DNA of 60,062 nucleotides, the filler included, from Sphacelaria rigidula (taxonomy: Eukaryota), in NCBI GenBank assembly GCA_964200075.2. It is 6 parts of 6 records of this genome, joined end to end, with 100 filler letters (N's around TTAATTAATTAA, not from the genome) between each part and the next. Parts side by side here need not be neighbours in the genome. Positions count along the whole stretch, not along the records: positions 10,029 to 19,956 come from CAXNAA020007476.1; 5 more parts are not named here. The stretch is one strand, 5' to 3'. Shown piece by piece: positions 4,124 to 55,857 of the stretch. Below the pieces are notes generated by a model, which worked only from the letters and a program-made list of their open reading frames with translations, was not told the origin of the DNA and did no database searches. Numbering within the stretch: the stretch's first letter is position 1; every line of letters starts with the position of its first letter. The position numbers and the translations under genes were made by a program.

Positions 4124-6672
4124 TCACGAAAATAGGGTAGCCGACGGTCTCCCCATCAAACCCGACGTGGACGAGGCCATGGTTGACACGCCCATTCCCC
4201 ATGGGTCTACACCCCCTCGCATACCGCCGCCGCCACCAATCGAGGCACTCATGTCGCTGGACCCACCAGCAGTGTTGGCACAGACGCTCTTCGATGAACA
4301 AGAGGAAAGTTCAGATGAGTAGGCCAAGAGAGGGAAGGGTGCCGCCGCTGAGGGCGATGAGCACAGGGGAAGCGATGGTGTTCGGCGGTGTTGGTACGGC
4401 TGTACACCACCGGGACCTTGGGTGGGGGTGTTGCTGTCACCACCGCTGCTGCTGCTGCAGCTGCTGGTACTGTTGTTGCTGTGCTCGTCCCGGCCGTGGG
4501 CACCCGGCAATCCCCTGCTGCTTCCGCCGACAACCCCTACGGCCGCCGGAAACGCACCATCACCCGCACTACCCATCTCCCCAAATTCCTGCAAGAGGGA
4601 CGCGTCGGTATCAAGTAGCGACCAGTCCAGCTGCGCAGACACTTCGGAACCGGGCATCGACAGCCCCGACAACGTGGACAGGTTACGCATATGCGAATGT
4701 TGCACTCCTCCTGCTCCAGCTGAGCTCCCCCCTCCCACTGGGCGCTTGCTACCCGTGCCACCACCGACTCCACCGAGCATCATCGCAGATCGCATGCCTC
4801 CCCTCGGCCCCTTGCCGTTGCCGCCGCCGTTTTCGCCGAGTGATGGTAACTCTGCCCAAGCTCCCATGCCACTAGCCCCGTCAAGCTGGCTGCTCCACCC
4901 GCCCCCAATACTCGCGAGAGGATTCCAAGTGGATGGATCCATGGCCGAAGAACCTGCCTCCTCTGCGCTGGATGCCCTGCTGCCGCCGCTCCCACCGTCA
5001 GCTGCTGTCGGCGTAACGAAAACAGCGGAATTATTGTTGCTGTGGTGGCTGCCTTCCCTGGCGCCGGCCGTCGATGCAGAAGTCAACTCGAATTGGTCAC
5101 TAGAAGACGGCCATCCGCTCGAGGCAGCGGCAACAGAACCTAATCGGTCGTCGTTAATCGATGCGTTGGGGTCAAAGGCGACATCAGCAGATGGGCATCG
5201 AGCGAGCGCTGCTCCAAATCCGAAAGCCTTATCGAGCCACAGGGGGAGTTGATCTTGCGGGTTCCCAGCCCCGCCACAGCCGCCGCCGCCGCCGCCGCCA
5301 GCAGTGGCGTCTCCGGCGCTACTCCACGCCCCAAAATAGACTCCCGACGAGTTCATCGCTCCCGACGTGCAGTCGGCGACGGAAGATGCCCGAGAGCTGG
5401 CACTGAAGACGTCGCTGCTGTTGTTATCCGCGTCATGACTCCCGCGCAAGTACGCGTCCATCGCTGCGCCGCTTCTTACCGACGACACTAACGATGGGGA
5501 TGCAGAGGGGCTCGGCGGCACTGCGTCCGCCCCCATATCTACAACGGCACTGCTTTGCATGACCCCTGACTTAAGACCACCGGCGCCACCGACGCCGCTC
5601 ACGAACGGGAGGAGACTCGGGGACGAGTCCACGGAAGAAGCGGCGGAAGAGGTTGACGGAGACATGCAGGAATTCATAGCCCACGGGTCAGCGACGATCC
5701 CTTTCCCCGCGCCGGACTGCTTCTTACGTTGCTGATGATGCGGTTGATGACTGGCCGGCAAGTTCTGCCGAGGAGCTGCTCCTTTCGTCTGGGACAGCAG
5801 CGACGCAAAGTCGTCGCCAACGTGCCCGCCGCCGCCGCTGACCGTCGTCTGCTTACCGACCGTGACGCCATTGCCCTTGCTTGCGTTTCTCTCGCCTCCG
5901 CCGCCAGCATTGACCGACTGCGCGTCCTTCTTGAGCTGCTTAGCATGCGCGCGAGCCCGGGCCCTCGCCTGCGCTTTCGCCTGCTTCTCCGCGGCAGTAT
6001 CCGCGGTCGCCGAACTGTTGGGTTGCTTACGGCCTTTCGGCCTTGCCGCTACGACGCTTTCGCCGCCGCCAACACCAGCACTCACCACGTTTTCCGCCGC
6101 CCAGCGCTCCGAAGGCTGTTGCGTTGCAGCCGAGCTATCCTCACTCCGGACTCCTGACTTTGTCGTAGAAGACCCACCGCCATCAGGGGGCTTACCGCCC
6201 GCGATCGCTCCCGCAGCGCTCATGCGTCGTTTCTTTCGAGCGGCCGGGGTTTTATCTCCCTCCCCTTGCTCAGATTCACCCGTCGTTTCCGCCCCGAAAC
6301 CATCATCGTGATGGGCTTCTGCGCTTGCTGCTTGGTCGCGATCCACGGCGTCAACTCCCCCCCGTCCCCTCCCAGTCGCTGCCGCTTCCGGTTGCTGTGC
6401 CGTCGCGCCAGTGCCAGCGGCGGAAGAAGTGTTTGCTTTGGCAGAGCCGTTTTTGGCGTGCTTCGGGTTGACGCGGCGCACCTTGACCAAGAGATGTGGA
6501 CAGTCCCGCAGGAAGAAGGGGTGGGAGTAGGTCCGGTCTGAGCAGTCGGCCACCTTCCGGAAGCCGTACATGTTGAGCTGCCGTTGAAAGCTGGAGAACT
6601 TGCCGTGGCGGTAGTTGGCCGTGAGGACGTCACGCTCGAAGTCCTTGTCATTGTGTACAGTGAACGAGTCTC
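4124..6672 (-). CDS. Heat-shock factor (HSF-type DNA-binding domain) transcription factor, large terminal exon; 5' exon(s) not located
   Basis: Acceptor ctacag| at 6673. Exon opens GDSFTVHNDKDFERDVLTANYRHGKFSSFQRQLNMYGFRKV...YSHPFFLRDCPHLLVKVRR, the C-terminal part of the HSF DBD (RQLNxYGFRK), followed by about 780 aa of Gly/Ser/Ala-rich sequence to a stop at 4124. Confidence 0.9.
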
Positions 6673-7373
6673 CTGTAGTTATAAGGGTGAGGTCAATGAG
6701 GGCCATCGAAAAAATATCGTGTTTGAGTTTTTTTTGTCAACCTCTCCGGACCGGGAGAGAGAGGTGGTCCATCTCCTCATGGGTTGAACCCCAAGCATCC
6801 CCTTCATTTGATACACTGGCGATGCCGTCAAAACGTTCGAGGTCAGAAGATATACACCACAACATACGTCCTGTACACGGTACTGCATTCACCACACAGG
6901 TGAAGGGTCGATTACAACTGGTGAGGTGTAATAAGGTCTCCTTCACATCGGACCAAGGTGAGTTTTGGAACAGAAGAGATACTCAGGATAGCGCATTCCG
7001 AAAAGCTTGCACCATTGACCGTGCACCCACGTTGCAAAGGTTTCAGAATGGGGCGAGACGCCGAGATTCCGCATTGCATCCGCTAAAAGCATTAAGCAGG
7101 ATCGGGGGCGGGAATGATACTTTACTCCTAACACGATGATGAATGACACTTGCGACACGACTTGCTTGGCCTGCACTCGTGGCACGATTCGCACTTGAGG
7201 TTATTTCAGCCTTTTGCACTTGATGAGTGTTTTTTTGTCAACTGTCGGTCCACCCGTGGCAACAGGATAAATCAGGTACAACAGTAAACGAAGGTAATAC
7301 TGGTTGCAGGAAACTCGACCAAAGACGATATTATTGGCAAAATGAAGATGTACCGGGACAGAATCTGCTTCGC

Positions 7374-7478
7374 CCCTAGACCGCGAGGGCGGTCTATCTG
7401 GACCATGCATACTTTTTTCGAGTGAAAATTGATGCCGAATCAGCAGGTGACCAACCCCCGCGGTCGAGAGGTCAAGGG
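7374..7478 (+). mobile_element. Diverged copy of piggyBac-type MITE
   Basis: ccctagaccgcgag...catgcata...gaaaattgatgccgaatcagcag...cgcggtc has the same layout as the 9692-9888 copies. Confidence 0.6.
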
Positions 7479-9691
7479 TCAATTAAATTAGCGGGCGAAG
7501 CTCGCATCAGGAGCCAAACCTCACACACTCACAGATTACGAGTAAATTAGCCCAAAGTGAATTAAAAGAAGCGCGACTATGGCCGAGTGTTGTACTCGGC
7601 TCTGACCCAGAATCGAAGACCTCTCCACAATCAGACGGAGGACTAAAACATGATATAGTTCCTGCTTCACTGCTGTGCTGTACCGCAGCAAAAACACTCA
7701 AGCCCTCTCTCGTGTGTTGGAGCTTCCACTGCCTCTACTCTCGTGGTGTGTTCATGCATTGCGAACACGGTGTGGATTGCATGAGCTGCGATATTGCCGT
7801 TGTGTTCGTCTCTGCAGAAAACATTGTTAGTCAGCACGCAGTGCTGGCTACAGACTGTTGAAAGCTTCATGGGTGTATTGACTGTTTCGTCTTCAGTGAG
7901 ACGAACAACGCGCTGTCGGTTGCTGCGACATCACTGCTGGTGCCGTGCGTTGGGCGCCTGTACTATACCATACTACTGTGTTGTGTTCAGTGTAAAATAC
8001 TGTTTTGGGCTGAAACGCGCTACGAGTTAGACCGCACGTACACTTGATTTTAGAGTACTCCCGTCGTGATTGCCAGGCGAAATGGGGCGATCTGATTGGC
8101 AGTTACCACGCGAATCTGTCCCGCTCCAAATGCAGTCGGCCATATTATTAATATCCATCATGTAAAATGAAAATGAATGGATCACGATATTTTGGGAGAC
8201 TCATACCATGTTTATTCGCGGACTGTGCAAGTATCAAGTAAATCGGCAGCGCAATGGTTCCCAACAGATACAGTAAAAGTATAAACCGCACGGCCGAACA
8301 TGCCCGTAAAATTGAGAGGGTGCAGGGTCCGTTTGTGGTTCGCTAACAACGCGCATCTCGAGACGCACAACAGACAGAATGGTGACTCGGCGGAGCGCCC
8401 CAACCCGTTCCCCTCACCGACGGACAGAGCTCTGGCCTTGTAATGGGTTGGGGAGTTATGAACCGCAGGAGGGGTACAACACACGGTCATAAAAACTCAA
8501 CAGCGACGCGATGTAGGGCCAGAGTGCACATGTACCCTCCAACGTCAGCATAGATAGCTGTAATGGGCGAGTAAGCCCTGAAGTGAAACAGGAGGTCTCT
8601 GTCGTATGATGTGCTATGGTAACCCTGTCTCAGCCCCGCGCCATCGGTTATGGTACTGTACTGGTTACATGGGCTCAACTTGAAAGTTGCCGCAACAATA
8701 CAGCTGGGCAGTAAACCGAGTAGCAACTTAAAGCGAGCAACCTGCCGCTCTGGGGCCCCGCCAGTCGCATAGAGTCGTATTCATCGACCATCCGAAACGA
8801 GAGCGCAACACGAAACATGTGCATGAAAAGCCGCTTCGGCTACTGGTACGGCACTTTACTGCTTGCTATTCTATACCTTTTCGTCACTGCTCCCACCAAA
8901 CCCCAAAATGCATGCATTTCTTTTTCCCTTACTCGAGTTTCCTGTCCTACCGTAGCGTTCCCATTCGTCGTGCCTTAGGTCGGTTCGTTGCCAACACGTT
9001 TGGACTCGTAGCGTATCACTCGAAGTGACAAAAGCAAATCAATCGATCGAACAAGTCAATCTTCAGGTCAAGAACGCGGACCATAAGCCTTTCGCATCCT
9101 GCACAAAAGAGGGCGCATGCAGAGTTTTAACGGTAAGAACTGCGTACTACCGACTGTACTGTGCTGACGGCGCTTGTTCTGTTGTGTATAGCGGTGAGAT
9201 TACCCCGCCCCCCCCTCCGCATCGAAAAGAAGAGCGCCAGTGATCTCGCGAAACGTTAGTATTTCCCTCGTATTGTACAAAACATACACTTTCGTAGACG
9301 AAGGGTAGCGCATAAAGGAGAAAAACAATACATACTGGTCGAGTGGCGACATGTCTCTCGTGAAAGAGGAAGAAGGAAATCAGGCATGGGGCGGCACTGA
9401 GAGGATGGCCGCGCGGGGGAGAGCGGAATCCGACTCGGCTGGATGTGTGCGAGTCATCTGCGGAGATTTTCCACCCAGACATTTTTATTGCATTAGTGAA
9501 GATCCGAAGATTTGACGGATGGCCGTGAGTGGAGATTACCCCACTTGGACGTAAAACGCGATGGTTGACACATACACTATTTCGTTCAACCATAACGCCA
9601 AGCCTGGTTACAACCCACCCCAACACTTGTGCAAGGGATATGCATGTAGTGCCATAGGTAAAGTAGGTGTTCATAGTTGTGCTACTTTTAA

Positions 9692-9928
9692 CCCTTAGGC
9701 CGCGAGATTAGTCTTTTTGGATCATGCATATTTTTTTCACTTGAAATTGATGCCGATTCAACAAAAGACTAACCTCGCGGTCTGAGGGTTAGCCCTTAGA
9801 CCGCGAGATTAGTCTTTCTTGATCATGCAACTTTCCCCACTTGAAATTGATGCCGATTAAACACAAGACTAACCTCGCGGTCTAAGGGTTTAACCCTAAC
9901 CCTTAGACCGCGAGGTTAGTCTTGTGTT
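9692..9928 (+). mobile_element. Tandem ~97-bp piggyBac-type MITEs (9692-9788, 9793-9888, inverted partial 9900-9928)
   Basis: TTAA|CCCTTAGRCCGCGAG(A)TTAGTCTT...AAGACTAACCTCGCGGTCTRAGGG|TTA, with ~24-bp TIRs. TTAA flanks and CCCT termini are piggyBac hallmarks. Confidence 0.8.
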
Positions 9929-10028
9929 NNNNNNNNNNNNNNNNNNNNNNNNNNNNNNNNNNNNNNNNNNNNTTAATTAATTAANNNNNNNNNNNNNNNN
10001 NNNNNNNNNNNNNNNNNNNNNNNNNNNN
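9929..10028. other. Artificial contig linker N44-TTAATTAATTAA-N44
   Basis: The identical 100-nt spacer, with stops in all six frames, recurs at 19957, 29985, 40012 and 50038. Confidence 0.98.
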
Positions 10029-10289
10029 GCCAGTACAGCAGCGGGGCAAGAAGATAGAAGATACGATCGTGGGACGCCTGGATGGTTTGCCATGAAAATT
10101 GTTTGGCACAAACGTGGGGCGCTTGTGTCAAAGGTGTTGGACTTGGCTTCAGGCTACGAGCCCGTGTTGCAGGCATCATTTAGTGTCGGTGAGCCAGCAA
10201 AATAACTGAAAAACACCAGACCCCCACCGAGCACCAGGACTGGGATGCCCCAGCACGTTGTCTATATTCCAGTACAATTTAAACGAATA

Positions 10290-13245
10290 AGCTGGAGATT
10301 CTCTCGAAAGAGGTAAGGAAGGGCGGATGGCGGAGTAAAGGTTGGTCGGGTAAGGTACTAGTAGTGCTGGTATCCGGAGTTTGTAGCGTTATGACGAGAA
10401 TAGAGTTTAAAGGAAAATGCGATAGGATTGGACTATACTGTTTGGCGAGAGGAAAAGTGAAAAGGAAGGGAGAACACGTCCGGGTCACGTTAAAACAGAG
10501 TGCGAGCACGCTAAAGCAGAGCGCGAGCAAGGAGTGTGAAAGGATAGAGACAAGTAAGGTGTTGGCATGGGTTAGAAGAGTAGGATGGAGAGTATGTATA
10601 GCTAATGGAACAACAACCTAGGACGTAGTCCACGGGTAAATGGAGGGGGAGAGAGGCAGGAACAGGTAAGTGCCAGGAAGGAAAAGGAGAGGGGGCATAA
10701 CGACCCGATGCAAATAGACAAGGACCAAACCCTCAACGGGAAGAACAATAAAGCAAGGGAAAGTAGAAGTAAAAACGACGGAGAGAGAAGAGTATAGTAC
10801 AGGAGAGCAGATAATGATTCGGGAAGGAAGTAAAGAATAGGATCGTGGAATGTGTGTGAATCCGTCACAGACAAGCGCAATAGAAAGAGATAGCGCAACA
10901 AGTAAGTAAATGCGACCTAGATATAGTAGGAATCCAAGAGTCATGGGAGAAAGAGGGGGCGGAAGTAGGATGCAAAGTTGAAAAGTACGCATGGATAGGA
11001 GAAAAGCGGAGGGGACAGAAGTCCAAGATCAGGGTAGCGGGGGGAGTAGGATTCTCGATGAAGCAATACCTGTGTGACATTATAGACGTGATCGACGACA
11101 TGAAATTCGACGAGAGCATATGGATAAGGGTACCAGGAGAGCGGGGAACGAAGGACTTCTTCGCAGGGAACATTTATACACCACCAGAATCGAGGAGTAG
11201 GCTGAAAGATTTACAGCGGAGGTTTGGAGAGAAGCAGCAGATGTACATAAGTATAAGAGGCAAGGAGAAGAAATGTTAGTGGGAGATTTGAATGCAAGGA
11301 TAGGAAGAGCAGGTCAACCGGATGATATCATTGGGCAATACGGGGAAGATAAGAACACGAATGGAGTAGAAATTCTCAAGTTCCTTGAGCATAACGAGAT
11401 GGAGACACTGAACGATAGAGCACAAAGCCAGAGGCGCAATGGACATGGACTAGAGAATGCAAAGACGAGGGAGAACGCTCCGTTCTTATATATAAAGTGG
11501 TAGAGCATGGAAATAGTGAAAAAATGGAAGCACATGTATGCGCGGAGGACGTGGGACCCACAGATCACTGCCTAATATGGACAGAGAAGCAACAGACGAG
11601 AGCTACGAGTAAAAGAAATAGGCGGGGTAGGAAGTTGTACAAACGGAGAGCCGATAAACTAGATATGAAAGAAACACAGCAAAAGTTGAAAGAAAAGATA
11701 GTAGCAATAGAAGCAGCAAAGCAAGGAGTAAAAATGGGTAAATATATGCTTTCAGGATCGATGTTCGTGGATGATTTTGTGAGAATTTCAGGAACAGAAG
11801 GACTACAAAAACCGATAGACAAAGCGCTATTATACACGATGAAATGGAGAGTAACAGCGAACGTCAACAAATGGGCGGTATGCGTTTGTGACAGATAAGA
11901 AAAATCCGGTAGTTTAAATGGAAATGGGGAGAAGAGGAATTGCCGATCGTAGACCAGTAAACATACCTTGGCGTGGAGATCTCAAAAAGCTGTTCTTGGA
12001 ATGCACACATAAATAAAGCAAAATAAAAGGGTAAGGCACGGATAAGGAGGATGGACGTGATCCTCAGAGACTGGCACCTAGACAGTAGAATTGAGAGATG
12101 TATCCTGATGAATGTGATTGTACCGAAGCTAGAATATGCAGGAGAAGTGTGGGAGGGGAACATGGAGTTGGTGGAGAAGTCGGAAACAGTACAGATGGCA
12201 GCAGCTAAGAAAATACTGGGATGCTCGAAAACGACGAGCAATACAGCATTTGTAGCAGATTTGGGAATGTACTCACTTAAAACTAACGGAGACATGAGGA
12301 AATTGCGATGTCAATATAGTGTAAAGAACATGAGAGAAAGAGATTTCCAGCTATAGTTGATGAGGCTGTATGGAAGAAAAGTACGAAAGTGCGGGCTGGA
12401 GTAAGTTGGGATAGAGAAGTCGAGAAAGTATGGAAGGAGATGGGTGGAAACCAAGACGATATAATTTGCATAGGTGTAGGCAGGGGGTACTGGACAAAAG
12501 TAAGAGACATGATGGAAATAAGGGGAAAAGAGCGCTCAGACGCAAAGTAGACGAGGAAGAACACGTGAACATATAAGGGGGGTTGAGAGAGGGGATAGGG
12601 ATGAAAACATATCTGCATGGCCCACTGGACGCTGCGAAAAATCTGAAACTGCGATCTCGGGTGGGGACCTGGACCTGCCAGAAAGAAAAATATATATACC
12701 AGTCGTCGAGAGGAGGAGGAAGTAGATGGACAGCACTGCTTATGTGGCAAAGCAATAGAGAGCAGAAGTCACGTGGTGGCAGAATGTTGACTAAACAAGG
12801 AGGAATGTGACGTGGTAGAGTGGGAAATGCGGGACGTGAACGAAAGTGGCATGAAATCGTTTGACGCATCAGACAATGGCAAAAAAAACGATAGCTATAC
12901 CAGGAAATAGATGGTGGTCACAGACGGCAAAACGGGACGGGGATATGGTATGCAAAAAGGTTTTGTGCAATGTGTGGAAGAAACGTAATGAGCGCCGGAA
13001 TGTTGAATGTGTCTCTACAGTTTTAGGAGTAGGAACTGTGCTCCGTCTCGAAAGGGATGCGCGGTCAATGGTCAAACGACTGAGACAAGCAAAGAATGGG
13101 ATAAGATATGTAAGAGGTTCTTGTGTAATGTATGGAAGAAACGTAATGAGCTACGAAAGGAAAATANNNNNNNNNNGTCTCGAAAGGGATGCGTGGTCAA
13201 TGGTCAAATGACTAAGGCAAGCAACAAATGAGTACGCCCCCCCCA
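10290..13245 (+). mobile_element. Decayed non-LTR retrotransposon (LINE): APE endonuclease, partial RT, CCHC zinc knuckle
   Basis: APE motifs IGSWNV (~10837), DIVGIQESW, ESIWIRV, LVGDLNARIG and DHCLIW. RT motifs MFVDDFV and (Y)KYLGV. CCHC CLCGKAIESRSHVVAEC at ~12737. Many stops and frameshifts. Ends ...GCVVNGQMTKASNK* gtacg + C-run. The 5' boundary is approximate. Confidence 0.92.
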
Positions 13246-13431
13246 CCACCACAACCAATTATAGTTTTCCTGTCAACGTGGCATGGAATAGCTAGCTGTA
13301 CACACTTAAAAGTAATGGACCTATCTGCTCTCACTATAATGTTGGAAGGACTGGCCCGATGCGAGATAAGTCGTCTTCTAAAATCCTCTAAGCAACTTCT
13401 CCGCACGTCCGCTGGTCATCGTACAAAATCT

Positions 13432-13434
13432 CCC

Positions 13435-13474
<40 letters not shown>

Positions 13475-13518
13475 ACCCCGGGTCCTCGTAAAAAAACCCC
13501 CCCCCCCCCCCCCCCGCC
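13432..13518 (+). repeat. Poly(C) tracts
   Basis: Two long C homopolymer runs are directly visible. Confidence 0.9.
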
Positions 13519-13667
13519 CGATGTCAGACCATCCTCTGCTATGCCGGGCTGTCTCCAGTTGCCACACACGACGCGTTCAGAAATAATGGCACACACGCAC
13601 ATTCAGTCGGAAAAATAGGGATGAAAATGTGAGCAAAGACGCTAAGACCATAGTTACGTATGAACAG

Positions 13668-16600
13668 GTAGCGCTCCTGGGCACTATGCGAGCACAGGGT
13701 ATAGCGCACGACGCAATATCCTATCAATCCGCGATATCAGCATGCAGAAGGGGAGGGGACAGCGCCACCGCCTTGAAGCTCATGCAAGAAATGGAGAGGG
13801 ATGGTTTCCCCCCCGGAGAAGCCGTGTACAACCTGGTGATCGAGACAGTCGGTCGGGAGGGGGATTGGAACCGTGCAGTGGACTTGCTGAAGCAGATGAA
13901 GGAGGATGGAGTGAAGCCCGATGTCTTTAGCTACGGCGCCGCGATTGGCGCTTGCTCCAAGGTTTGACGTTTTTGCGGGGGACAGCAGATCTTTGTGGAA
14001 ATCGTAGCTAGAGTTTTAGCGCGCGAAACGTATCGAAGTAATGCTCATATATTTAGGTGTGGAATTGGTGGGGGGTGTACTCATGATCTTGCATGCTGTT
14101 TTCATATGACCGTTGACCTCGCATCCCTACAAGCCGGGACGGAACACGTGGGATATAAGTCTGACCAGGCTCGCAATCAATCACCAAGCGCGAAGCGCCG
14201 TGATGTGCTCGGCGAGTCGCATGAAGGGTGAGCGGCATCCTGCTAGGATTGTTCGGCCCGAAGCGAACTGATTATCTTGCATTTGGATGACAGCCTCCAA
14301 TGGGTTCCTTCATTTTCTGGTATCGCCACTTCCATAGACAGCCACGGGCTACACACCGCCTCATGAGCCTCTCCCCATTTGAACACTACGTAGTATAATC
14401 ATCCCCTTTGCACGGAGTATAGGTTCTCCCACCCCGCATAATATTATATAGCTCGACCACCACCATGATTACGGCAAAAAACGCAAGTTTGCAAGAAAAA
14501 TCGGTGACCTGGCTGCCTAGCTTACGCAATGAATAGCGTGTTTGACAGCGTCATTACCAAACGACACCAGCCCCGTAGGGGGTTCAAGTGGGTGGAAGGG
14601 GTTGTTGTTGGATACGTTGGAGGAGCGGGGGGCGGAAGCTCCACCGCGCCTTTGGTTCTGACGCTGCTTTATGTGTGGTTGGGTATGTCTTCCAACGTAT
14701 GGGCTGGATTTGGACGTAAAGTTTGTTGCCGAATCTTAGCCCCTTTGTGCTCCACCGTGTTTTGTTCGCCGGCGTATATGTAGGCGAGGCGGCGATGAGT
14801 GTCATGTGTACAGGAGTCCCGGTGTTCCCCTCCCGATAATACGCCCACGAGAAACCTGGTCCCGCGCTGTGAGGACGCCAGGCAAATCCTGTGTAAGCAA
14901 ATACTCACCAAACACAATTGATACAAGTATAAACACTGCACAACATTTTTCTTCACACTCGTGACTGCCGCGCCCAAAAAGTACGCTCCCCATTGCCTCC
15001 TCCCTCCCCTTCAGGGCCGCAATCCCGCACTGGCGCGGGTGCTGCTGGAGGAGATGCGAGGGTTAGGACACCAACCTAACAGATTTTGTTGGAACAGGGT
15101 GATTAACGTACACTCACGAACAGGCGATCTTGAAGGTGGGACCACAGAGTTCATACGCGTGTCACTCGTCCACGCTTGTCTCATGGAACGCGTCTACCTT
15201 GTCTTCAAAATTCCGGACCGGACCGAGCCAGATCGATCATACGCCCTGGCTCGACCCGCACGGAATATTCATTTATCACGTTTGGATTTTCTTGTTAATA
15301 GGATGAGTCTGTCGGCGTAGCTCCACCCCAACCGGTCTGTTTCTCCCTCTCTTGGGCACCGCGCTGCTACCGGTCGTTTCCGGAACCTTTGCAGTGCATG
15401 AGTGCTTCATGCCGTCTGTCGAACGACACTTCTTTGCATCGTGCCGTACCGACTCTTGGTATCAGCACCAACATCGTAGGACACAGGTTGTGACCCGTCC
15501 GGCATTGCTCCCTGCTTCTATTCAACATGTGGCATGACCTGTTCCTCCACGCCCCCCACTGCACCGCACTTGATAAATGACAGGTGCCCTTGCGCTGATG
15601 GAGGAAATGAAGAAAAGCATGGCTTGTGACGAGAACACCTTCTTGAGCGTGGTGCACGGTTGCGCGCAGACCCGCGATTGGGACACCGCCCACCGCATTC
15701 TGGCCGAAATGCGAGATTCGGGCTTCAAACCCAGCGACGCATGCTACTACACGCTCGTCTCGGCCTCTTCAAACGCAGGGGAGCTTGACGTTGCGGAAGG
15801 ACTGTTGCCCCACATGAGGGACGACGGTGTGCCGCCGGATCTGTACACATATAGTGCTCTCATGTCGGGGTGCGGTCGCACCGGCGATTGGGAAAGATCC
15901 GCCCGGATATTGGAAGATATGAAGTCCGCGGGAATCGAGCCTACCAGGCAGGTGTGCACTGAAACCAAACAGAAAAAAGACGCTGCAATAAGTGGAAGTA
16001 TTGTATTCGTCGGGTCTCACGAAGCCTTGCCATCCGTAACCCGTATCTTCAGGTATATACGTCGGCGTTGAGAGCTTGCGCGGCGGCCGTCGCCGTGGAC
16101 GGGGGACAGGCTGCCGCGACCAGCAGCCTGTTGGAAGAGATGAAGGCGCGGGATGTGCCAAAAGATGACATCGCGTGCGGAGCTGCATTGGAGGTTTTCG
16201 GAAAGGCTGGGAATGTCGGCGAGGCGCTCGCGCTTATCGAAGAAATGCGACGAAACGGACTGGAACCAAGTTGTGAGTCTGCGTGGCAGGGCTTTCTGGG
16301 GTATTTTTTATCATGATGTGGTACTGAACGGTCGCACGTGATCTGATCCTTTGTTATTTCGTGTTTAGTTTGCTGCTGCCGTCCAGTGACCGAGAATGCT
16401 GTTGCTGCACGCCAACGCAATGAAGATTCCACTCTCGGCTACACTTTTGCCGTGGAAGATTTTGAAATGTTTTATGTAACTACGTTGAGTAAGTACACAT
16501 TCCTATGCATGTGAAATTCACATACTGACTGCGTTGAACTTCATACCCATGCCGATCCCCACGTTACGTTGCTCATCATGGCGATGACCATCGTGACCGA

Positions 16601-16845
16601 CTGCTCCCTGGTCACCCTGGTCACAACACCTCAAAGTGCAATGCTACAGCGGTGCTATTGCGGCGTGTGCGCGCGCCGACGACGTAGATAGGGGTCTGAT
16701 GCTTTTAGCTGAGATCGGACGCGCCACCACTTTTACACCGAATGCTGAGAGTTTTCAACAGCTCGTTTCGGCGAGTGAACGGAACGGGAAGCCACATATT
16801 GCGCAAGATTTGCGGAAAGCGATGACCAAGTTGGGGTACGCATAA
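13668..16845 (+). CDS. Pentatricopeptide repeat (PPR) protein, 3' five exons; 5' end missing
   Basis: Exons 13668-13961, 15015-15135, 15584-15951, 16053-16272 and 16637-16845 (TAA), all GT-AG and phase-consistent. Repeated ~35-aa PPR motifs: SYQSAISAC, VYNLVIETVG, PDVFSYGAAIGAC, PDLYTYSALMSGC, VYTSALRAC, CYSGAIAAC. Confidence 0.93.
14070..14585 (-). mobile_element. ~560-bp non-autonomous retroposon (LINE-tail-sharing), 5'-truncated copy in a PPR intron
   Basis: Reverse complement aligns throughout with 18250-18814 and 43024-43572. Ends gggatgcgaggtcaacggtcatatga...gcaagatcatgagtacacccccc. Confidence 0.85.
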
Positions 16846-18249
16846 GGACAGCAGCAGACGGCGTATTGTTGTAGAGTACATTCGGTATATTTTTAGCCGT
16901 GGAATGGATGACACACAGAATTGGGTGTTTTGGCTCCTTTCAAGGACGTTTTTCTGCCGTAAATTTTGATCGAAAGGGTGTCCGTCGCACCTTGGTGGTC
17001 TAATGGTACAGCTGTCGCCGTTAGGGCAGGAAAAAGCGGGTTCGGTTCCCACCAGATGCATCAGGGTTATCTTTCCCCCCCTAAAGTATATGATTTCCTT
17101 GGTTGAAAACATGTGGACGTGAGTAGCAAAAATAGTCTGTTTGGCTGGCTTTGTTGACGACAGTCGACGCGGTGCGTGAGTGTTGGCCATGATCCACTCC
17201 GCGATGCCAAATGTACGGCGTCCCGGGGCAGAGATTAGTTGACCCCTGGTGAGCACGGACTCCTCCCAAGGAAGGGGAGGGGTTGGAAATGTGACCATGA
17301 TTTAAACGAAATGTGAGCCACGTTCATGTGAACAATTGAGAGCCTAGAAACGCGCTTCGGGTGCCCCCGATATTTTGCCAACCAGGGTCATTCATTTCGG
17401 GATCAAAACGTCTCCTTATATGTTGTGTTGTAACAGCCCCCAACGTTTATTCCATCTGTGATACTTGTGTGAGGGGTACAATGCAGTGAACGGGGATCGT
17501 CTTTTCGTGCTAGCCTAACTTGTTGTGATAGCTGGTTTGAGTGGGGAGACAAAAAGACGAGCCATCGGAGCGGGTTGAGGGAGGGAGGCAGCTAAGCTTG
17601 TCTCTTCGTTCAAGTACAAGGCTTCCAACTCTCCAAAAATATAGCAGATGGCATGTTCTGACGGAGAGGCGGCGTCGTGACTACTTACTGTACTCGTGCG
17701 GTGCTATGCTATACTGTACGGCTGTAATGCCAGGTCAATGCTAGTGTACTGTAGAGAGATACAATGATGAATTGCCTAACTTGCATGCATGCGTGCATGG
17801 CATACGTGTATGGCACATGCGGCACTACTGCGGAGACCGAATGATTATGTGCTCGTTGTTACTGTGCTGTACCGTACGGCAGCACTGCTGCGGTTACAGA
17901 AAGCTAAATTGTACAAAATTGCTGTGGTCTGCTGCACTCCGCGCTGCGGTACTACGTAGTTGCTGTGGGTGCGTTTACATGACACACACACGCGGCGTCG
18001 ATTTCAAGATTTTTGCCAGTTCCTATCTGATCCTGCGATGAGGTGTTTGAGTGCGCGGGAAAATGGGGTTACGCGTGTGTTACACGACCTTGGACACTAG
18101 TAATGGACTTCTGTGTGGATGTAAACTGTATCAAGTTGTTTGTAAAGGGACTTGATATTGATAACAAGAGCATTCATGTGGATATTTCTTCTTACAGCGA
18201 CGTTTCAAGTGGCTCCCTCGTGTAACAATTGGCTCAACCTTCCCCTACC

Positions 18250-18814
18250 CCTGGTCCGGCGGAAACCCCGCGTGCTCCGTCCTGGCTTTGTAGGGACGGA
18301 CCCCCTATGGATTTGGCGTTGCTTGGCAATGACACTGTCAAACACGCCACTCACTGCGTAAACTACTGTAGGCCACCAGGTTACCGGTTTATTGCGCACT
18401 TGCTTTTTTTTGTGGTAACCATGACGGTGCTCGAGCGAGCTCATGTTGTGCGGGGTGGGAGAACCTCAATCCCTTGCAAAGGGGATGGTAATACTGCGCG
18501 TAGTATTTAAATGATGAGTCATCCATGAGACAGTGTGCAGCCCGTGGCTGTCGCTGGAAGTGGTGATACCAGAAAATGAAGCAACTCGTCGGAGGTTGTC
18601 ATCCAAATGCAAGAGAATCAGTAGGCTTCGGGCCGAACAATCCTGGCAGGATGCAGCTCACTCTTCATGCAAGTCGCCGAACACATCACGAAGCTTCGCG
18701 CTTGGTGATTGATTGCGAGCATGGTCCGGGGGAAACCCGGCGTGCTCCGTCTCGGCTTTGTAGGAATGCGAGATCAACGGCCATATGACTACGGTATGCA
18801 AAATTATGAGTACC
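18250..18814 (+). mobile_element. ~560-bp non-autonomous retroposon, apparently full-length copy
   Basis: Homologous to 14070-14585(-) and 43024-43572. A ~45-nt motif at 18250-18296 repeats at ~18720-18765. The 3' end is homologous to the LINE 3' end. Confidence 0.85.
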
Positions 18815-19956: not shown

Positions 19957-20056
19957 NNNNNNNNNNNNNNNNNNNNNNNNNNNNNNNNNNNNNNNNNNNN
20001 TTAATTAATTAANNNNNNNNNNNNNNNNNNNNNNNNNNNNNNNNNNNNNNNNNNNN
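19957..20056. other. Artificial contig linker
   Basis: N44-TTAATTAATTAA-N44. Confidence 0.98.
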
Positions 20057-29984: not shown

Positions 29985-30084
29985 NNNNNNNNNNNNNNNN
30001 NNNNNNNNNNNNNNNNNNNNNNNNNNNNTTAATTAATTAANNNNNNNNNNNNNNNNNNNNNNNNNNNNNNNNNNNNNNNNNNNN
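29985..30084. other. Artificial contig linker
   Basis: N44-TTAATTAATTAA-N44. Confidence 0.98.
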
Positions 30085-30086
30085 TA

Positions 30087-30432
30087 CGGTTTTTTTTTGG
30101 ATGAGAAAATATGTTTGAAATTCGCAGCTCGTGCTTGAACCATGCCGCCGAACGGCTGCAAAAAAAGTAGTCGGCCCAAAAATGGCCGTTTTTTGCCCCT
30201 TTCCGAGGGGGAAAAAGTGTCGATTTTTTTTTTTAATCGCCCCCGCCTTCACTGCAGTTGCTGCCAGAAAGTCCCACGCGATTAAAAAAAAAATCGACAC
30301 TTTTTTTCTCCTTGGAGAAGGGCGAAAAACGGCCATTTTGGGGCCGACTACTTTTTTTGCGGCCATTCGGCGGCATGGTTCAAGCACGAGCTGAGAATTT
30401 CAAAAACATTTTCTTATCCCAACAAACACCGT
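30087..30432. mobile_element. Long imperfect inverted repeat (foldback/MITE-like), ~155-bp arms
   Basis: 30087-30240 is the diverged reverse complement of 30278-30432, for example cagctcgtgcttgaaccatgccgccgaa versus ttcggcggcatggttcaagcacgagctg. Confidence 0.8.
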
Positions 30433-30520
30433 TTGAATTGGATAAAGTATGGAAAAAAATCGGACACAAGTGTACTGGTTTGTGAATCAAGCGGCCAGAC
30501 ATTTACGCCAGTAATAATAT

Positions 30521-30543
30521 TGATGATGATGATGGTGATGGTG

Positions 30544-30624
<81 letters not shown>
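30521..30624 (+). repeat. (ATG/GAT)n trinucleotide microsatellite
   Basis: About 35 units with a few GTG variants. Confidence 0.97.
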
Positions 30625-32547
30625 CATACCACAAAAGTCGAAGTTTTTCTCAAGTTTCACCATTTCTCCCGAGAAAATGCAAGTCTGGCCAAAGAAAACA
30701 TCGCCACGGTCACGGTCACCAGATGACGCCAAGGTGCCCTGGAACCATCTCAAAGAGTACAGCAAACCTACGAGATGTCAAACTTTGCCTCGTTCTCCGG
30801 GCGTAGAACGACGCAGAAGGACCAAAAAGGCAGTCTGCGTGAGATTTGTCCGGTACCATGAGAAGTGGCCTGGGATACTTCTTTCTGAAATTTCATTTGA
30901 AACCATTTTCAGGGAGTATTTCCCCCTCGGCTCGAAACCGCTCCCCAGGAAAGCAAGAAGAGGCTTGAGCGGACACAAGAGCACAAGGCAGCTCTCTTCA
31001 ACTCGAGAAAGTTCCGTCGTCGCTTGCGTTTCTCCTAGACGGGTACACTTGCCGTTAGACTACATGTTTGTCATGGCTAGATCGTGAGTTGAGGCGACGC
31101 CCTCCGTATTCGGAGGCTGCAGGCACCTCCTAATCGCTGAAAGAGAGGGATGTACGAGCTCTTTCTTCAACTCCTTTGAAAGGGCACTCTCAAAACCTGC
31201 AAAATGCTGTCATTATCCGGTTTATTCTGCTGGGCGCGGAACGCACTGTGAACAGGAAGCCGTACGCCCCAGCATTCGGATGCCAAGAACACCACGCAAA
31301 TAACTTGGCATGATCCGCAGACGTCGCCGAGGAACAGTAGGGGCGGGAGTCCGCCCCTCGCACGAGCCTCGCGCCCAACCCGCCATCTTCAATCAAACTA
31401 AACGACGAAATGGAAAGAAGCCGGAGAAATGTCGGAGGAGAGGTCTGAATCGGAATAACTTGTCTCGCTACGTGCGTGTGTCGATTCGATGTTATGCATC
31501 CTGAACACTTGTCATGAAAAAAGCGCTGCCGTTCGATTGTTCAGCCGCAGAGGGCGTCCAAGCTGAAGAGCGTGGCGTGCAATCCTACATGCGACACCAT
31601 CGTGACTGTATCTTGTTCTTATTTTTATTACTTGTATCGAGTCTGTCGGGACCTCAGTGTTGGCTGTCCCGTCTGTACAGCATGTGTCTGCTGCGACAAA
31701 ACCTTGACTTGTTGATTAAGAGACCATAGCAAGTCACCCGCCGCGTGGATCAGATGTTGCGTTTTCATCCATTTCACTTGATGAATGAGTGCAAGTCCGA
31801 GATGCCCCACTCTTCCCATCGAATGCTTACTTGATTTTGTTGCCGGCAGGGAGGGGTCACCCTCCGCAGACATTTGGTGTAATATGATTCTGGGTGAAAC
31901 TCATAGAGGAAGGGAAGGAACACGGAGGGGGGCGGGGGCCGGGGGTGAGGGGGAAGGGGGGACGGGGGGGGGGCAAGATAACACAACAATGTCATGAACA
32001 GTACAGCATTGTACAGTGTTGGGCTCGCAAAATGGCGCGGGCTACATCTGCACATCGCTAACACAACGTGGGCTGATACCTCCGTTTTCAAGAAAGTACT
32101 TGTAACCCTTTGACCGCCAGGTTGGGCAGCCTGGGTCTCACGTTTATTGTTTACGTGAAAATGATGCTGATTCGGGATATGACACAGACAGACAGAAGAC
32201 CAAGACGCTCCGCTACGAGGGCTGTCTGAACGTGAGGGATGTCACAATACCACTTTGTAGAATGCCTATATTGATTTTGAGATAACGCTAACCCTGACCC
32301 GAACCCTGAACCTACCGCACTCAAGTCGCACGATAACCCTCGGACAAGGAGGCTGAAGAGTATTCCATAGGCACAGTGTGGCGTTCGTCGACCTCAAATA
32401 CATCAAATCGGCGCCGATCTAGACAAAAAACACATTTTACGCACGGTAGGAGCACTTGGGACTGTTCGCCCCACTGAAGACCCGAATTTCGGTGTTCACA
32501 CTTAAATGAAGTAAAATCATTCCTCAGTCATTTTACTGAGTGGTCTC

Positions 32548-33400
32548 TACTGACTTGACATTAAAATTGGCCGCAACATAGTGCGGAGGGCACATTTTTT
32601 TCGCGCAGGAGTTGTTGCGATAGAAACACATGGTTGCAAAGACAAGGCACAATCGTATCAAAGCTACCCGCGCGTCGGTGTACTCTGCGTCTCTGTGCAG
32701 CAAGGAGAGCTGCAGCCTCGTCGTGGACAAGTCATGCACGTGGAGGCACATAAATTGAAGAAAATTAATACTGTCAAACTACTTGTGTGTTTTTAAAGCA
32801 TCCACAGACCACGAAACCCTTAGACTCTCCGATCAACGGGTTCTCTGAACTTGGGGACATTACAGTTGGCCGCAAGATTGTGCGGGACGCACACTTTTTT
32901 TTTTCGGCGCAGGCATTTTCAAACGATTTCAAACGATAGGAACACGTGGTGGCACAGGCATGGTACACTCGTATTACAGCAGCCCGCGCGTCTGTGTCCT
33001 CTGCGTCTCCATGCAGCAAGAAGAGCTGCAGCCTCGTCGTGGACAAGTCATGCAGCAAGAGACATACTGAAAAAATGAAACCAGTCGAATTGCTTCTGTG
33101 TTTTTGAAAGCATCCACATGCCACACAACTCCAAGACTCCGATACACGGGCTGACTGAACTTGGGGACATTACAAATGGTGGTGCTGGAAGACCATTTTT
33201 TGGGTGGCGCAGGGATTGTTTAAACGATAAACACGCATTTGCACAGGCAGGGCACATCTCGACCACGGCACGCCACGCATCGATGTCCTCTGCGTCCTGT
33301 GCAGGAAAGAAGCGATGCACTACCCTCGTAGAAAGAATAAAAAAAAAGTAAGCACCTTTTCTTACTCGTACAAACTCCACACGCCACCCAAGTCACCACT
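32548..33400 (+). repeat. Diverged ~300-bp tandem repeat, about 3 units
   Basis: Recurring blocks such as gaacttggggacattaca, ttttt..gcgcagg, tcctctgcgtc, gagctgcagcctcgtcgtggacaagtcatgca and aagcatccaca, with unit starts at ~32548, ~32847 and ~33157. Confidence 0.75.
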
Positions 33401-34719
33401 TGACGACTTTTACCGCTTCGAGGTCCACATCTGTAATCGGCACCATTTTTACATGAAAAACAGTGAGAATGATGCCGATTCAACGAATGAAATCCTTAGT
33501 ACGCTCTTCCGGGGGAAAAAACTATCTTCGCTTGAAAGAGCCTATGGAGAAAAGGCACTCAAAAGGCCTTTTGCGCTTCGGTAAAATCTTACGCAATCCC
33601 CTCACGACCGACCGGACGAATCCCCCGTTTCTGACTGGCGAGATTGGTTTTTCCACCAGGAAGAGGCGGGACACGTTTTCTTTCTTACCCTATATGTTTT
33701 ATGAGCGATTCGCATGGCTAACTGTTTCCTCGGTCGAAGAACCCGATTTATTTATTGAGTCGTACTGGTTACCATGCTTGGACATGTATGTTCAGCTGCG
33801 TATAGGGCAACATGAGGGTACTTGAGCGTGAAATACTCGACTCGGCAGGGATGTACACATATTCACGCACGGTAATGTCAGACCGAGCAGAAAGCCAAGC
33901 TCTCATAACGATAGTGGGCGTCTGCCAGACTATTTTGGCTATGTAAGATCGCCGATATCGAATGAAAATCAGGCTTGCAGTTGTTTGGAAGAGTGCCGTG
34001 TGTTGAATTACGTCATCACTTGTCACAAGCCCCCTCTCCCCCCAAGTCCACCATATTTGTTATCTATGCTTTGCGATTTTATGTACTATACAAGCCGTCC
34101 GGGACTGGGGCTTCGCCCCGGTCCCGTCCGTAGTGTTCGAGAGTCTCGGTATTCTTGCCTTGCCAAGCCTCTCTCGCAACTTTCATCTTGCATATAGAAG
34201 AAAACACACGAAAATTCCTCCAGGACTGCGGGTATGAATGGTGAGCAAAAGTGATGGTTTGAAAGTCATGTGCATAACCGACATAATCTCAACTTTGAAA
34301 ATTCATATGATGGAGCGAATGATGATATAACCATAGAGATAATAGTAGGCATCATCGTTATCAAGAGTAATGGTGCTACAGTAATCGATCCAGAGATGAT
34401 GATGAGCATGTTTCCCATAAGTGAGCTCTGCTGCTCTGCGGATATAAACATCGAGCAAATGTTAATATCGAAAATAGTTTAGCTCACTGGAGTAGTTTTT
34501 ATCATCGAGACCGCGGGGTGTAGACTCATGGGAAGTCAGCCGTGCATGCAACATGACAGAGACTGTGTGTCTGCTGGGTTGACACATGGGCCAGCGTCTA
34601 TGACATGATGAACAAGCATCACCGTACTGTTCTCCTGCTGTCTGTAGTACGCCGTAACGAGTGTACTGCAGCTCGTCAAGATTTTGGCATAAGTACCCAC
34701 ACCCGAATAAGATCGCACA

Positions 34720-35118
34720 ACGTTACCTTGGAGCGCTGTACTGTACTACGCACTGCTTCTTGTGCGATGTTGTGAGATACTTGTTCATGGTGTGGCACAT
34801 TTTGCCACAGCTCACCGGTTCTTATGCCAATTTTGCGATTATCGAACGGGGAAGTACATCTGTGCCGCTGCGCGAAAACATCGAACATCTTTCGCAGTGC
34901 CATACCGTTTTCCCTGTATATCACTAACATTGAAGGGCACGGCTTCACGTCTGCAGCTGCCCTGCACGTGTGTTCTAAACAGACGGCCTCCCGACAAGGG
35001 GCTTTGCGTGCAGTCATCATTCTGTAACTGTGACTCAACATCACCTTTGAGTACTGTACTGCATAATGTACTGCTTCTTGCGCGATGTCGTGACACACGT
35101 GCTTGTGGTGTGCTGCAC
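34720..35118 (+). repeat. Pair of diverged ~80-bp direct repeats about 320 bp apart
   Basis: ctgtactgtactacgcactgcttcttgtgcgatgttgtgaga (~34736) versus ctgtactgcataatgtactgcttcttgcgcgatgtcgtgaca (~35054). Confidence 0.6.
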
Positions 35119-35947: not shown

Positions 35948-36025
35948 CACCTCATCGGCATGCACGTGGTCAATGGTCAAATGACTAAGGCAAGCAACAA
36001 ATGAGTACGCACCTCATCGGCATGC
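35948..36025 (+). mobile_element. 46-bp LINE 3'-tail insertion (35964-36009) with a perfect 16-bp TSD
   Basis: cacctcatcggcatgc at 35948-35963 and 36010-36025 flanks acgtggtcaatggtcaaatgactaaggcaagcaacaaatgagtacg; 45 of its 46 nt are identical to the LINE terminus at 13192-13236. Confidence 0.92.
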
Positions 36026-36067
36026 GATCCGCATCCTACCGCGTTCTGCGCTGTAAAATATGCCGCC

Positions 36068-36552
36068 GTCGATTGCGTCCGGAACAATCTGAAAATGGTA
36101 TGGGGAGTAGATTATTATGCAGCTTGATACAGTTGTAGTGCAGAAAGAACGGTACAGTGGTGGCAGTAGGACAGTGGTGCGGTGCTTTGTGTACGTGGTA
36201 CAACATCTCAAATTCGACGTTTCTGTATATTGAACCGTAACTATACTGTTGCACATAATGGGAAACAGGGTGGCGGAGAATAGTTCAACCGTGGTATGAA
36301 AGTCTATGGGGAACGGTCTTGCAGCGTGCGACGTGAACTACTAATACAACTGCAGTCGATTGCGCCCGGAACAATCTGAAGATGATGTGGGGATTAGATT
36401 ACGGAGCTTGATACAATGTACTGTTGTTGCACATAATAGGGCATAGGGCGGCGGAGTAAAGTCCGAGCGTGGTATGCAGTAAAGTCTATGGGGAACGGTC
36501 TCCCAGCGTGCGACATGAACTACTAATACAGCTGCAGTCGGATACACCGGAA
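36068..36552 (+). repeat. Diverged ~185-bp tandem repeat (2+ units; the first carries extra sequence)
   Basis: gtcgattgcgYccggaacaatctgaa at ~36068 and ~36355; aagtctatggggaacggtct...cagcgtgcgac..gaactactaataca at ~36300 and ~36482. Confidence 0.75.
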
Positions 36553-40011: not shown

Positions 40012-40111
40012 NNNNNNNNNNNNNNNNNNNNNNNNNNNNNNNNNNNNNNNNNNNNTTAATTAATTAANNNNNNNNNNNNNNNNNNNNNNNNNNNNNNNNN
40101 NNNNNNNNNNN
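40012..40111. other. Artificial contig linker
   Basis: N44-TTAATTAATTAA-N44. Confidence 0.98.
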
Positions 40112-50037: not shown

Positions 50038-50137
50038 NNNNNNNNNNNNNNNNNNNNNNNNNNNNNNNNNNNNNNNNNNNNTTAATTAATTAANNNNNNN
50101 NNNNNNNNNNNNNNNNNNNNNNNNNNNNNNNNNNNNN
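50038..50137. other. Artificial contig linker
   Basis: N44-TTAATTAATTAA-N44. Confidence 0.98.
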
Positions 50138-54295: not shown

Positions 54296-54499
54296 TGTCC
54301 TTTTAGCCGCCAACATGGGTCATCTGTTGAATCGATATCAACTTCCCGTGGAACAGTAGTACATGACCCGGATGACCTTTCGTACAGTGGCGGTTAACCC
54401 TAAGACCGCGAGGTTAGTCTTCTGTTGAATCGGCATCAACTTCAAGTGAAACAAAGTATTCATGATCCAGCAAGACTAATCTCGCGGTCTAACGGTTAA
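54296..54499 (-). mobile_element. piggyBac-type MITE (54398-54495, TTAA on both sides) plus adjacent diverged copy (~54296-54393)
   Basis: TTAA|ccctaagaccgcgaggttagtctt...aagactaatctcgcggtctaacgg|TTAA. The neighbour shares the internal gaagttgatatcgattcaacagatg motif on the minus strand. Confidence 0.8.
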
Positions 54500-55224
54500 A
54501 CGGATAAATAACGGTATAGTAAAACATACAAAACCGAAGGGCCGTGGGGACCTTCCCATCAAATAGTGCTATACCTCGAGCACAGCCATACGAAATTTCT
54601 TGGAAAATGTTTCGCATGGAGGGGATAAAGAAACTTACAGGCGCTTGGAATTCGGTCTCATGACTCGAAACACCGAGGAACGGTCTGCTCTGAATCTAGA
54701 ATTTAGTATGTAGGTGCATGTCTAAATAAAAAGTAAAAAGCTGTTGGAGGCTGTCTCAGACCTGTCGCTCTTTATTGGAAGGTTTCTGCTGCCTGTAGCG
54801 CCTGCGGCAAAAACTACGATGGCGTAAGATGAAAGCAGTATTTTCACCGTCTCGGTGTACTCCGAAAGCCCCAGCCCCTCAAGGCCTTCATCAGGCTATC
54901 GTAGCGCACGTAGCCGACAAGAGTAGCTGGCTAGTTGCTGAAACGGGCAGTTGTACTTTCAACTTCGGAGTAATTTACGGCACAGGAAGCGTTGACGTTA
55001 TCCGTCGTTCTCGAACCTTTGACTTGGGTAGGTCGCAGCTGGAATATAAAACAAATATTTTCTCTCATGACGATGGAAACAAATGGAATGACACCATCAT
55101 CATATACTTGTAATCGTCACCCAAAGATCATCCCAGAACAGTGTTGTCCCTCAAACGACATGTCCTTCGTGAGGGCGAGAAAAATCAGTCGGTGTAGGTG
55201 GCTGAAGAAAGACAGCAGCTACCC

Positions 55225-55759: not shown

Positions 55760-55857
55760 CCCTTAGACCACGAGGGCAGTCCATCCGGATCGTGCATATT
55801 TCTTCCAGGTAAAAATCTTGCCGATTCAACAGATGGCCTACTAGCGCCGTCTAATGA
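55760..55857 (+). mobile_element. Diverged piggyBac-type MITE copy
   Basis: TTAA|cccttagaccacgag...gatcgtgcata...tgccgattcaacagatg...gtctaa. Confidence 0.65.

Follow-up and report, generated by a model that had tools for sequence, protein, structure and literature searches.

A C-tailed LINE and its non-autonomous partner in Sphacelaria rigidula have a 3' module in common and insert into C-rich DNA

Long interspersed nuclear elements (LINEs) with C-rich ends have been catalogued in Ectocarpus, where RTEX-1/2_Ec32 are listed with '(C)n 3'' and a C-rich target-site duplication (TSD) in a supplementary table, and where the non-autonomous RTEX-N1_Ec32 (~600 bp, over 6000 copies) has its 3' end in common with RTEX-1 and -2 and a head of origin unknown to its authors (PMC12477816). 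In the main text of that paper, the terms 'C-rich' and 'stem-loop' do not occur. The first Ectocarpus genome paper gives a repeat called 'Sower' as covering 2.5 Mb (PMC3145265), and RTEX-N1 is probably this repeat, judging from the equal coverage of ~2.5 Mb. Green-algal RTEX tails, as described in PMC3747384, are short repeats, none of them (C)n. Here we describe such a LINE and partner in Sphacelaria rigidula (GCA_964200075.2), starting from a window of 60,062 nucleotides, i.e., the whole stretch of DNA analyzed, and extending to the assembly (244 Mb, 27,214 contigs searched). A sequence-only reading of the window had proposed a LINE and a non-autonomous partner with a common 3' stem-loop and a C-rich tail or target, and could not say whether the pair was catalogued. 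The pair is already catalogued in Ectocarpus, with its C features confined to the supplementary table in the parts of the source that deal with it. By comparison, we did not find in print the stub boundary, its recurrence across organisms, the origin of the partner's head or the nesting in C tails. The literature searched, outside of which lie subscription journals and Repbase, contained nothing on how a poly(C)-tailed LINE works or on truncation at this site; the Ectocarpus FASTA may hold short-stub families.

The Sphacelaria LINE agrees with RTEX-1a/1b_Ec32 and RTEX-2_Ec32 in its single open reading frame (ORF) for endonuclease and reverse transcriptase (RT), in its length (~6.1 kb against 5.5–5.9 kb), in the (C)n 3' end and in the C-rich TSD. 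It differs in species and in that the copies sampled here are decayed, and the passages on RTEX-1/2 in that paper include no ORF-overlapping module, added C's, nesting or 65–66-nt stubs. The partner, likewise, matches the description of RTEX-N1a/b_Ec32: non-autonomous and non-coding, about 600 bp (561 nt here, 604–607 nt there), thousands of copies, C-rich TSDs, copies in tandem, weak homology to the 5' end of the LINE and a common 3' end of ~60 nt, which is 83% identical to the LINE in Ectocarpus and 77% over 52 nt in the window copies. The head, unexplained in the Ectocarpus description, consists here of a 47-nt self-duplication and a homologue of the LINE head, and discrete classes of 5' ends occur. 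With an apurinic/apyrimidinic endonuclease (APE) upstream of the RT in one ORF, variable 5' truncation, a fixed 3' end and TSDs, the LINE is an APE-type non-LTR (long terminal repeat) retrotransposon, and it very probably represents, in this species, the RTE-X family of brown algae that has (C)n tails, accompanied by an RTEX-N1-type partner. Three points weigh against this assignment. The RTE-X label is taken from a blastp assignment in PMC12477816, with no labelled RTEX among the protein matches; the Ectocarpus families were compared by description and by Ectocarpus proteins instead of consensus DNA; and the sampled long LINE copies are all decayed, the longest ORF among 20 fetched being 317 aa. 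A comparison with the PDB returned just L1 and R2 for the RT (E 1e-21 to 1e-10).

The 3' ends of both elements were counted genome-wide with exact patterns, as a 62-nt DNA query was unusable since common words are skipped. Exact matches number 758 for a 41-mer of the LINE end and 1665 for a 29-mer from the end of the element, and neither end is due to chance, because both reversed patterns gave 0. The whole element as a query yielded 6264 first-look candidates, of which 40 were scored, at 79–83%. Both elements terminate at GAGTAC(G/A). Among 70 LINE ends (the 30 at the head of the list and another 40 lying away from contig ends), position +1 is G in 97% and positions +2 to +7 are C in 91–97%; 25 long LINE copies, picked by protein similarity, stop at the same point, with 72–100% C at +2 to +9. 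At the element ends (n = 50), +1 is A in 90% and C occupies +2 to +4 in 86–96%. In a 200-kb sample made of the starts of 20 contigs picked by number, at least five C's lie in the 7 nt behind 17 of 20 tails, with 1 tail in the control, and at least 20 of 93 C runs of seven or more adjoin a recognizable family tail. Poly(A) was found on none of the LINE and element ends inspected. Fixed and C-rich, the ends are thus neither random nor polyadenylated, either of which the sequence-only reading had named as fatal to its proposal. In the same sample (L247–L266), runs of at least 12 are C/G in 33 cases and A/T in 6.

The motifs and coordinates that had been read from the window are present in the sequence, with local corrections. 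Of the two LINE 3' copies to which a C tail had been ascribed, only the terminal one is followed by a C run; the other is an incomplete module directly followed by a duplicated LINE piece (13098–13166), and an assembly gap of ten N's (13167–13176) precedes the C-tailed end. The CCCC ending attributed to the partner is a genome-wide feature, yet among the three window copies it is clear solely in the one at 14070–14585 (C6 run at 14070–14075), the copy at 18250–18813 having no C run. A LINE stub at 35965–36009, overlooked earlier, has no added C tail.

The C's belong in part to the target and in part to an added tail. For TSDs, 49 stubs were compared; they are what is left of the 70 LINE ends once 15 lying at an edge or gap, 3 that exceed 70 nt and 3 with downstream gaps are removed. 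A clear TSD occurs in 27 of the 49 (2 of 292 in mismatched pairs as a control), with a median of 16 bp, and begins with CC in 24 of the 27; overall, TSD lengths range from 8 to 21 bp. In 15 of the 27 cases, 2–12 bases at the 3' side are absent from the target, and 102 of these 109 bases are C. The extra tail is pure C in 10 of the 15 and contains T or G in the other 5, as genomic flanks do. Targets with just 1–4 C's carry 6–14 C's downstream (L041, L052, L053, L054, L055, L137). Runs of at least five C's lie within 25 nt upstream of 39 out of 52 stubs, compared to 117 out of 5000 random sites. Element TSDs were found in 11 of 58 copies, which are older; 10 of them begin with CC and 5 have extra bases. 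A C-rich target and a C tail thus both operate, as the sequence-only reading had left in the alternative. Moreover, 6 of 26 full-length elements stand directly behind another family tail, and therefore insertions seed new targets: new copies often land in the C tails of older ones.

Two observations count against this account: there is no clear TSD in 22 of the 49 LINE stubs and in 47 of the 58 element copies, and no added C in 12 of the 27 TSD cases or in the window's own stub, so that the tail is not obligatory. These latter cases, which need no extra C, would also fit C-richness as a target preference alone, with the longer 3' runs arising from later genomic slippage or assembly errors. Homopolymers are indeed unstable and hard to assemble. 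Still, the step from 1–4 C's in the target to 6–14 downstream appears too large and too one-sided for slippage, and we consider target preference alone unlikely.

At the protein level, intact LINE homologues (1328–1395 aa) are 68–73% identical in the RT, combine APE and RT in one ORF (Exo_endo_phos at residues 170–392 and RVT_1 at 740–989 of P0002; Pfam) and end in GAPSRKG[CR]VVNG[QL]MT[KT]ASNK. A 90% cluster that includes Ectocarpus proteins is 68% identical in the RT and has the same end peptide, and Sphacelaria proteins match the LINE C-terminus at 62–65%. The decayed window LINE has an ORF remnant (10313–13228) with stops and frameshifts; compared to the intact homologue, it retains the endonuclease as well as the ORF's C-terminal half and has lost residues ~455–888. 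Its Cys/His knuckle-like motif has no match in Pfam. In 8 loci, full-length LINEs begin at one and the same position behind a C run; their 5' untranslated regions vary in length, some with tandem units of ~50 nt (L083, L084, L088). Six distant relatives (P0006, P0067, P0068, P0072, P0090, P0118; 33–39% identical) also have an end peptide of the type G-x-V-x-[NH/Y]-G, hinting that the ORF-overlapping 3' signal could be older than brown algae. P0216, filed under a bacterial metagenome-assembled genome, is 76% identical to the LINE C-terminus and is probably algal contamination.

The LINE and the element share a 3' module of 66 nt in the former and 72 nt in the latter. In the LINE, this module covers the last ~21 codons and encodes the C-terminal peptide, and the stop codon (13229–13231) lies 5 nt before the C run; the overlap with the last codons (...TKASNK), already pointed out from the window, recurs in the intact homologues. 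Copies of this genome differ from L171, an intact-type marine-metagenome copy, at 1 of 66 terminal sites and at 51 of 330 upstream sites (p 0.001), and at third codon positions the counts are 0 of 21 in the module and 24 of 110 upstream (p 0.013). As third positions are constant in the module, the constraint acts on the nucleic acid.

RNA structure of the module is plausible. The hairpin proposed earlier is present in both the minimum free energy (MFE) and the centroid folds, and LINE and element modules folded alone are predicted to have the same topology, in which the first and last six bases pair and enclose two hairpins. For the isolated LINE 66-mer, the closing helix has a probability of 0.98–1.0, and it is disrupted when the sequence is extended upstream by four bases; in the longer context, the module's first six bases are predicted to pair upstream instead. 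Some results speak against a conserved fold. The module folds no better than shuffles (z −0.27 to +0.38), and among 12 variant sites listed for four other runs 3 break pairs, the remaining 9 being unpaired or keeping the pairing, with no compensatory double change. The shared hairpin thus stands as a prediction. The pairing first drawn for the second hairpin had pair probabilities of 0.08–0.12 and was replaced by the predicted hairpin. Together, module conservation and the MFE/centroid hairpin are consistent with a stringent-type LINE, whose protein would recognize the stem-loop.

Observed here are a constant 3' end, TSDs that begin with C, C's added behind the insertion, copies nested in older tails, a constraint at the level of nucleotides and the common module; for the process behind them, established LINE biology suggests a mirror image of L1. 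In such target-primed reverse transcription (TPRT), the endonuclease would nick the G-rich strand and the G-ended primer would pair with a short C tract at the 3' end of the RNA, a tract that may derive from read-through into the C flank of the source copy and be lengthened by template slippage. A second nick would follow ~16 bp away. The protein would bind the 3' module, and the partner would borrow it in trans via its own copy of the module. Another possible source of the C's is enzymatic addition after transcription, with a tRNA-like end serving as substrate for a nucleotidyltransferase such as the CCA-adding enzyme. A 6-bp closing helix with one unpaired G/A before the C's does resemble an acceptor stem, and two thirds of the extra tails are pure C. 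On the other hand, the remaining third contain T or G like genomic flanks, the closing helix is disfavoured in the full-length context, and neither ARAGORN (0 of 13 loci) nor Rfam finds a tRNA-like match, which together make enzymatic tailing improbable, slightly more so than target preference alone.

The partner is a non-coding element of 561 nt, and across 30 loci its 5' end is constant and the flanking DNA unrelated. In all 30 its first 47 nt duplicate its own subterminal segment of that length, and nt ~55–135 can be aligned with the opening ~70 nt of full-length LINEs, so that the earlier impression of no LINE similarity outside the 3' end does not hold. The head common to LINE and element has a possible 6-bp hairpin with two wobble-preserving differences between the two. 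A head pseudoknot is unproven: 84% of cells are paired, compared to 23–66% in slid controls, and the 1 double change is not above shuffles. Our own HDV/hammerhead descriptor matched 0 of 8 LINE heads and gave scattered hits at differing places in 4 of 30 elements, with none in Rfam; such standard-fold scans leave room for a non-standard ribozyme at the head. A terminal-repeat retrotransposon in miniature (TRIM) or other LTR element was rejected on two grounds, i.e., the second copy of the 47-nt repeat is subterminal and the TSDs measure 8–21 bp instead of 5 bp.

As to its origin, the partner is probably a bipartite derivative, with a LINE 5' head, an unrelated middle and the 3' module, that later gained its own subterminal 47 nt in front. 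That the 561-nt sequence is instead the 3' portion of a different autonomous LINE, or a short interspersed nuclear element (SINE) of the Pol III type, is highly improbable. It is favoured by the C-terminal peptide of P0005, a second LINE family in Ectocarpus sp., which fits the partner's tail better than that of this LINE. However, the fixed 5' end with unrelated flanks argues against it, no match to LINE protein was obtained (best E 0.57), and a search with the P0005 C-terminus gave just the known family in this genome (32–42%; 150 of 2064 candidates scored) and no second autonomous one. The tRNA, 5S or 7SL head with A and B boxes that defines SINEs is absent as well: besides the negative ARAGORN result, Rfam returned no relevant family and a B box regex matched 1 of 30 copies. 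The P0005 family may have been the partner's original driver. One of the 25 long copies (L185) carries a LINE body with the element's tail, as expected if one RT uses both RNAs; it would have arisen by template switch or later recombination. With the genome-wide ends and the TSDs, this hybrid supports the pairing of a LINE with a non-autonomous element first proposed from the window.

Most recent LINE copies are 65–66-nt stubs that end abruptly at their 5' side. Exact matches number 1831, 1338, 255 and 168 for patterns reaching 61, 65, 69 and 73 nt from the end; 81% of the matches are lost in the step from 65 to 69 nt, compared to 27% and 34% in the neighbouring steps. Of 55 informative copy starts, 29 lie at 65–66 nt, 43 at 63–69 nt and 3 further upstream. 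In contigs of four other organisms (one run each), which do not report on RNA, the best-supported 5' loose ends, judged from the top-ranked entries, lie at 63–68 nt, mostly 63–65, with C-rich flanks. These proportions call for caution: exact patterns favour young copies, and young long copies break short-read contigs and are thus probably lost there, which inflates the share of stubs. The element has other boundaries. Among 58 distinct copies, 17 start at 29–53, 18 at 89–101, 8 at 299–305, 4 at 495–509 and 3 at 559–561 nt, and none of 39 tail-selected copies starts at 54–77 nt. A predicted hairpin upstream of the LINE module has its loop edge at 65–66, and the 302-nt element class also falls in a predicted hairpin loop (two cases). 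The lack of a 72-nt element class argues against a cut at the closing helix and favours a stop linked to the hairpin upstream of the LINE module. Recurrent RT arrest or RNA breakage at this predicted loop edge, just upstream of the module, is accordingly given somewhat better than even chances as the origin of the 65–66-nt stubs, and we favour it over a separate mini-element.

The latter would be a self-propagating micro-element, i.e., a small RNA cut or trimmed from longer transcripts, closed by a helix between its first six and its last six bases, C-tailed and copied to its end, with an RNase P-like cut or an exonuclease block setting the boundary. The stable closing helix of the isolated 66-mer, its disruption by four more bases and the boundary conserved in four other organisms would fit such a product, as would position 66, which ranks at the 99th percentile when 5' starts are scored for being paired, and the stub junctions, most of which (17 of 27) are blunt or have 1–3 untemplated bases. 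The partner, however, has the same closing helix and lacks the corresponding class; its preferred 5' ends follow no consistent paired-start rule, and the copies of its 302-nt class do not form a clade (7 changes against 8.2 shuffled, in a weakly resolved tree), which points to repeated truncation. We regard the micro-element as a minority explanation, with perhaps one chance in a handful or slightly better. Its fullest form, a brown-algal micro-SINE, is a shade more doubtful still: a promoter-less structured RNA of ~66 nt in the LINE's last codons would be the main recent product, conserved among brown algae, released as a discrete molecule and copied whole by its own LINE, priming on G-rich DNA with its C tail and seeding poly(C) tracts that are re-targeted. 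Three further candidates were dismissed: the rule that 5' ends fall at a helix base fails for the element (starts at ~96, 302, 509 and 561 have percentiles of 0.14–0.92), a separate 302-nt subfamily is not supported, and a G-quadruplex at the stub boundary was predicted in 0 of 5 folds.

The window strings together contigs of ~10 kb, separated by spacers of 100 nt (9929–10028, 19957–20056, 29985–30084, 40012–40111, 50038–50137) that consist of N's around a TTAATTAATTAA linker, and neighbours across a spacer are thus not genomic neighbours. The features are collected in Table 1. All named relatives of the host heat shock factor (HSF) protein come from brown algae (Laminaria, Ectocarpus, Pylaiella, Choristocarpus, Undaria). 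Besides the pair, the window contains another dispersed repeat family of ~100 nt, partly tandem (100–107 nt spacing), in both orientations and resembling miniature inverted-repeat transposable elements, as well as a long ATG microsatellite, an inverted repeat whose arms measure 131 nt and several local tandem duplications of 180–360 nt.

Table 1. Features annotated in the window (positions along the whole stretch).
Feature	Position	Strand	Basis or remark
Decayed LINE copy, truncated 5' by the start of the contig	10029–13236	+	tblastn of intact homologue P0002 on window; translation
AP-endonuclease region of LINE ORF	10887–11700	+	58–77% identity to P0002 residues 186–454
RT C-terminal half and thumb	11686–12332	+	66–73% identity to P0002 residues 889–1106
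Cys/His knuckle-like motif (C-x-C...E...H...C)	12732–12788	+	Translation; also in P0001–P0004
First LINE 3' module copy, 3'-incomplete (no GAGTAC, no C run)	13038–13098	+	Sequence
Terminal LINE 3' module (last 59 nt + G), codes ...KASNK	13177–13236	+	758 exact genomic matches of its 41-mer
C8 tail/target run behind LINE end	13237–13244	+	Sequence
Non-autonomous element, 5'-truncated at LINE-like head (~509-nt class)	14070–14585	-	Alignment
Full-length non-autonomous element (561-nt family)	18250–18813	+	Genome search, alignment
47-nt element head, copy of own subterminal 18718–18764	18250–18296	+	blastn 91% over 43 nt
Segment homologous to 5' end of full-length LINEs (hairpin, possible pseudoknot)	18300–18380	+	
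72-nt 3' module common with LINE (GTGCTC ... GAGTAC)	18742–18813	+	
LINE stub, 44 nt + G	35965–36009	+	Between exact 16-bp TSDs 35948–35963 and 36010–36025
Full-length element copy	43022–43570	+	C9 run 9 nt upstream; 3' side merely C-rich flank
37-nt element stub just behind the 43022 copy	43594–43630	+	Sequence
Further LINE 3'-region fragment, cut by contig end	50138–50280	-	tblastn/sequence
Host pentatricopeptide repeat (PPR) gene, spliced	13587–16846	+	Pfam matches; 14070–14585 element copy between exons
HSF-type transcription factor, 870-codon open frame	4124–6736	-	Pfam
442-codon frame with Chlam_PMP/beta-helix repeats	56666–57994	-	Pfam
Dispersed ~100-nt repeat family	7363–7456; 9688–9928; 32102–32188; 54392–54505; 55553–55842		
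Inverted repeat, ATG microsatellite and local tandem duplications (one list)	30086–30432; 30496–30645; 32618–33296; 34718–35112; 36065–36540; 52913–53341		

The analysis of the partner's head answers a point left open in the Ectocarpus description (PMC12477816); with the quantified C-target and C-tail behaviour and the stub length across species, the origin of that head is what this work adds. The family offers a testable mirror image of L1, in which an APE and an RT would act on a G-rich primer and a C-rich template with a 66-nt signal inside the ORF. Each insertion leaves two C runs that serve as new targets, a feedback loop, and the 65–66-nt truncation in five organisms provides a natural handle on the question of why LINE copies are 5'-truncated.

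Among known systems, mammalian L1/Alu TPRT likewise involves a homopolymer tail that matches the first bases of a ~16-bp TSD, and insertions that create targets. The differences are that C/G takes the place of A/T here, that a sequence-specific 3' module replaces the relaxed recognition of poly(A), and that 5' truncation is sharp instead of broad. Compared with eel UnaL2/UnaSINE1, as described in PMC3747384, the tail unit here is one C, the signal lies inside the ORF, the partner has no tRNA head, and the recognition is one that we infer; what brings the two pairs together is a common 3' end with a structure (predicted here), a repeat tail other than poly(A) and a probable role of slippage in making it.

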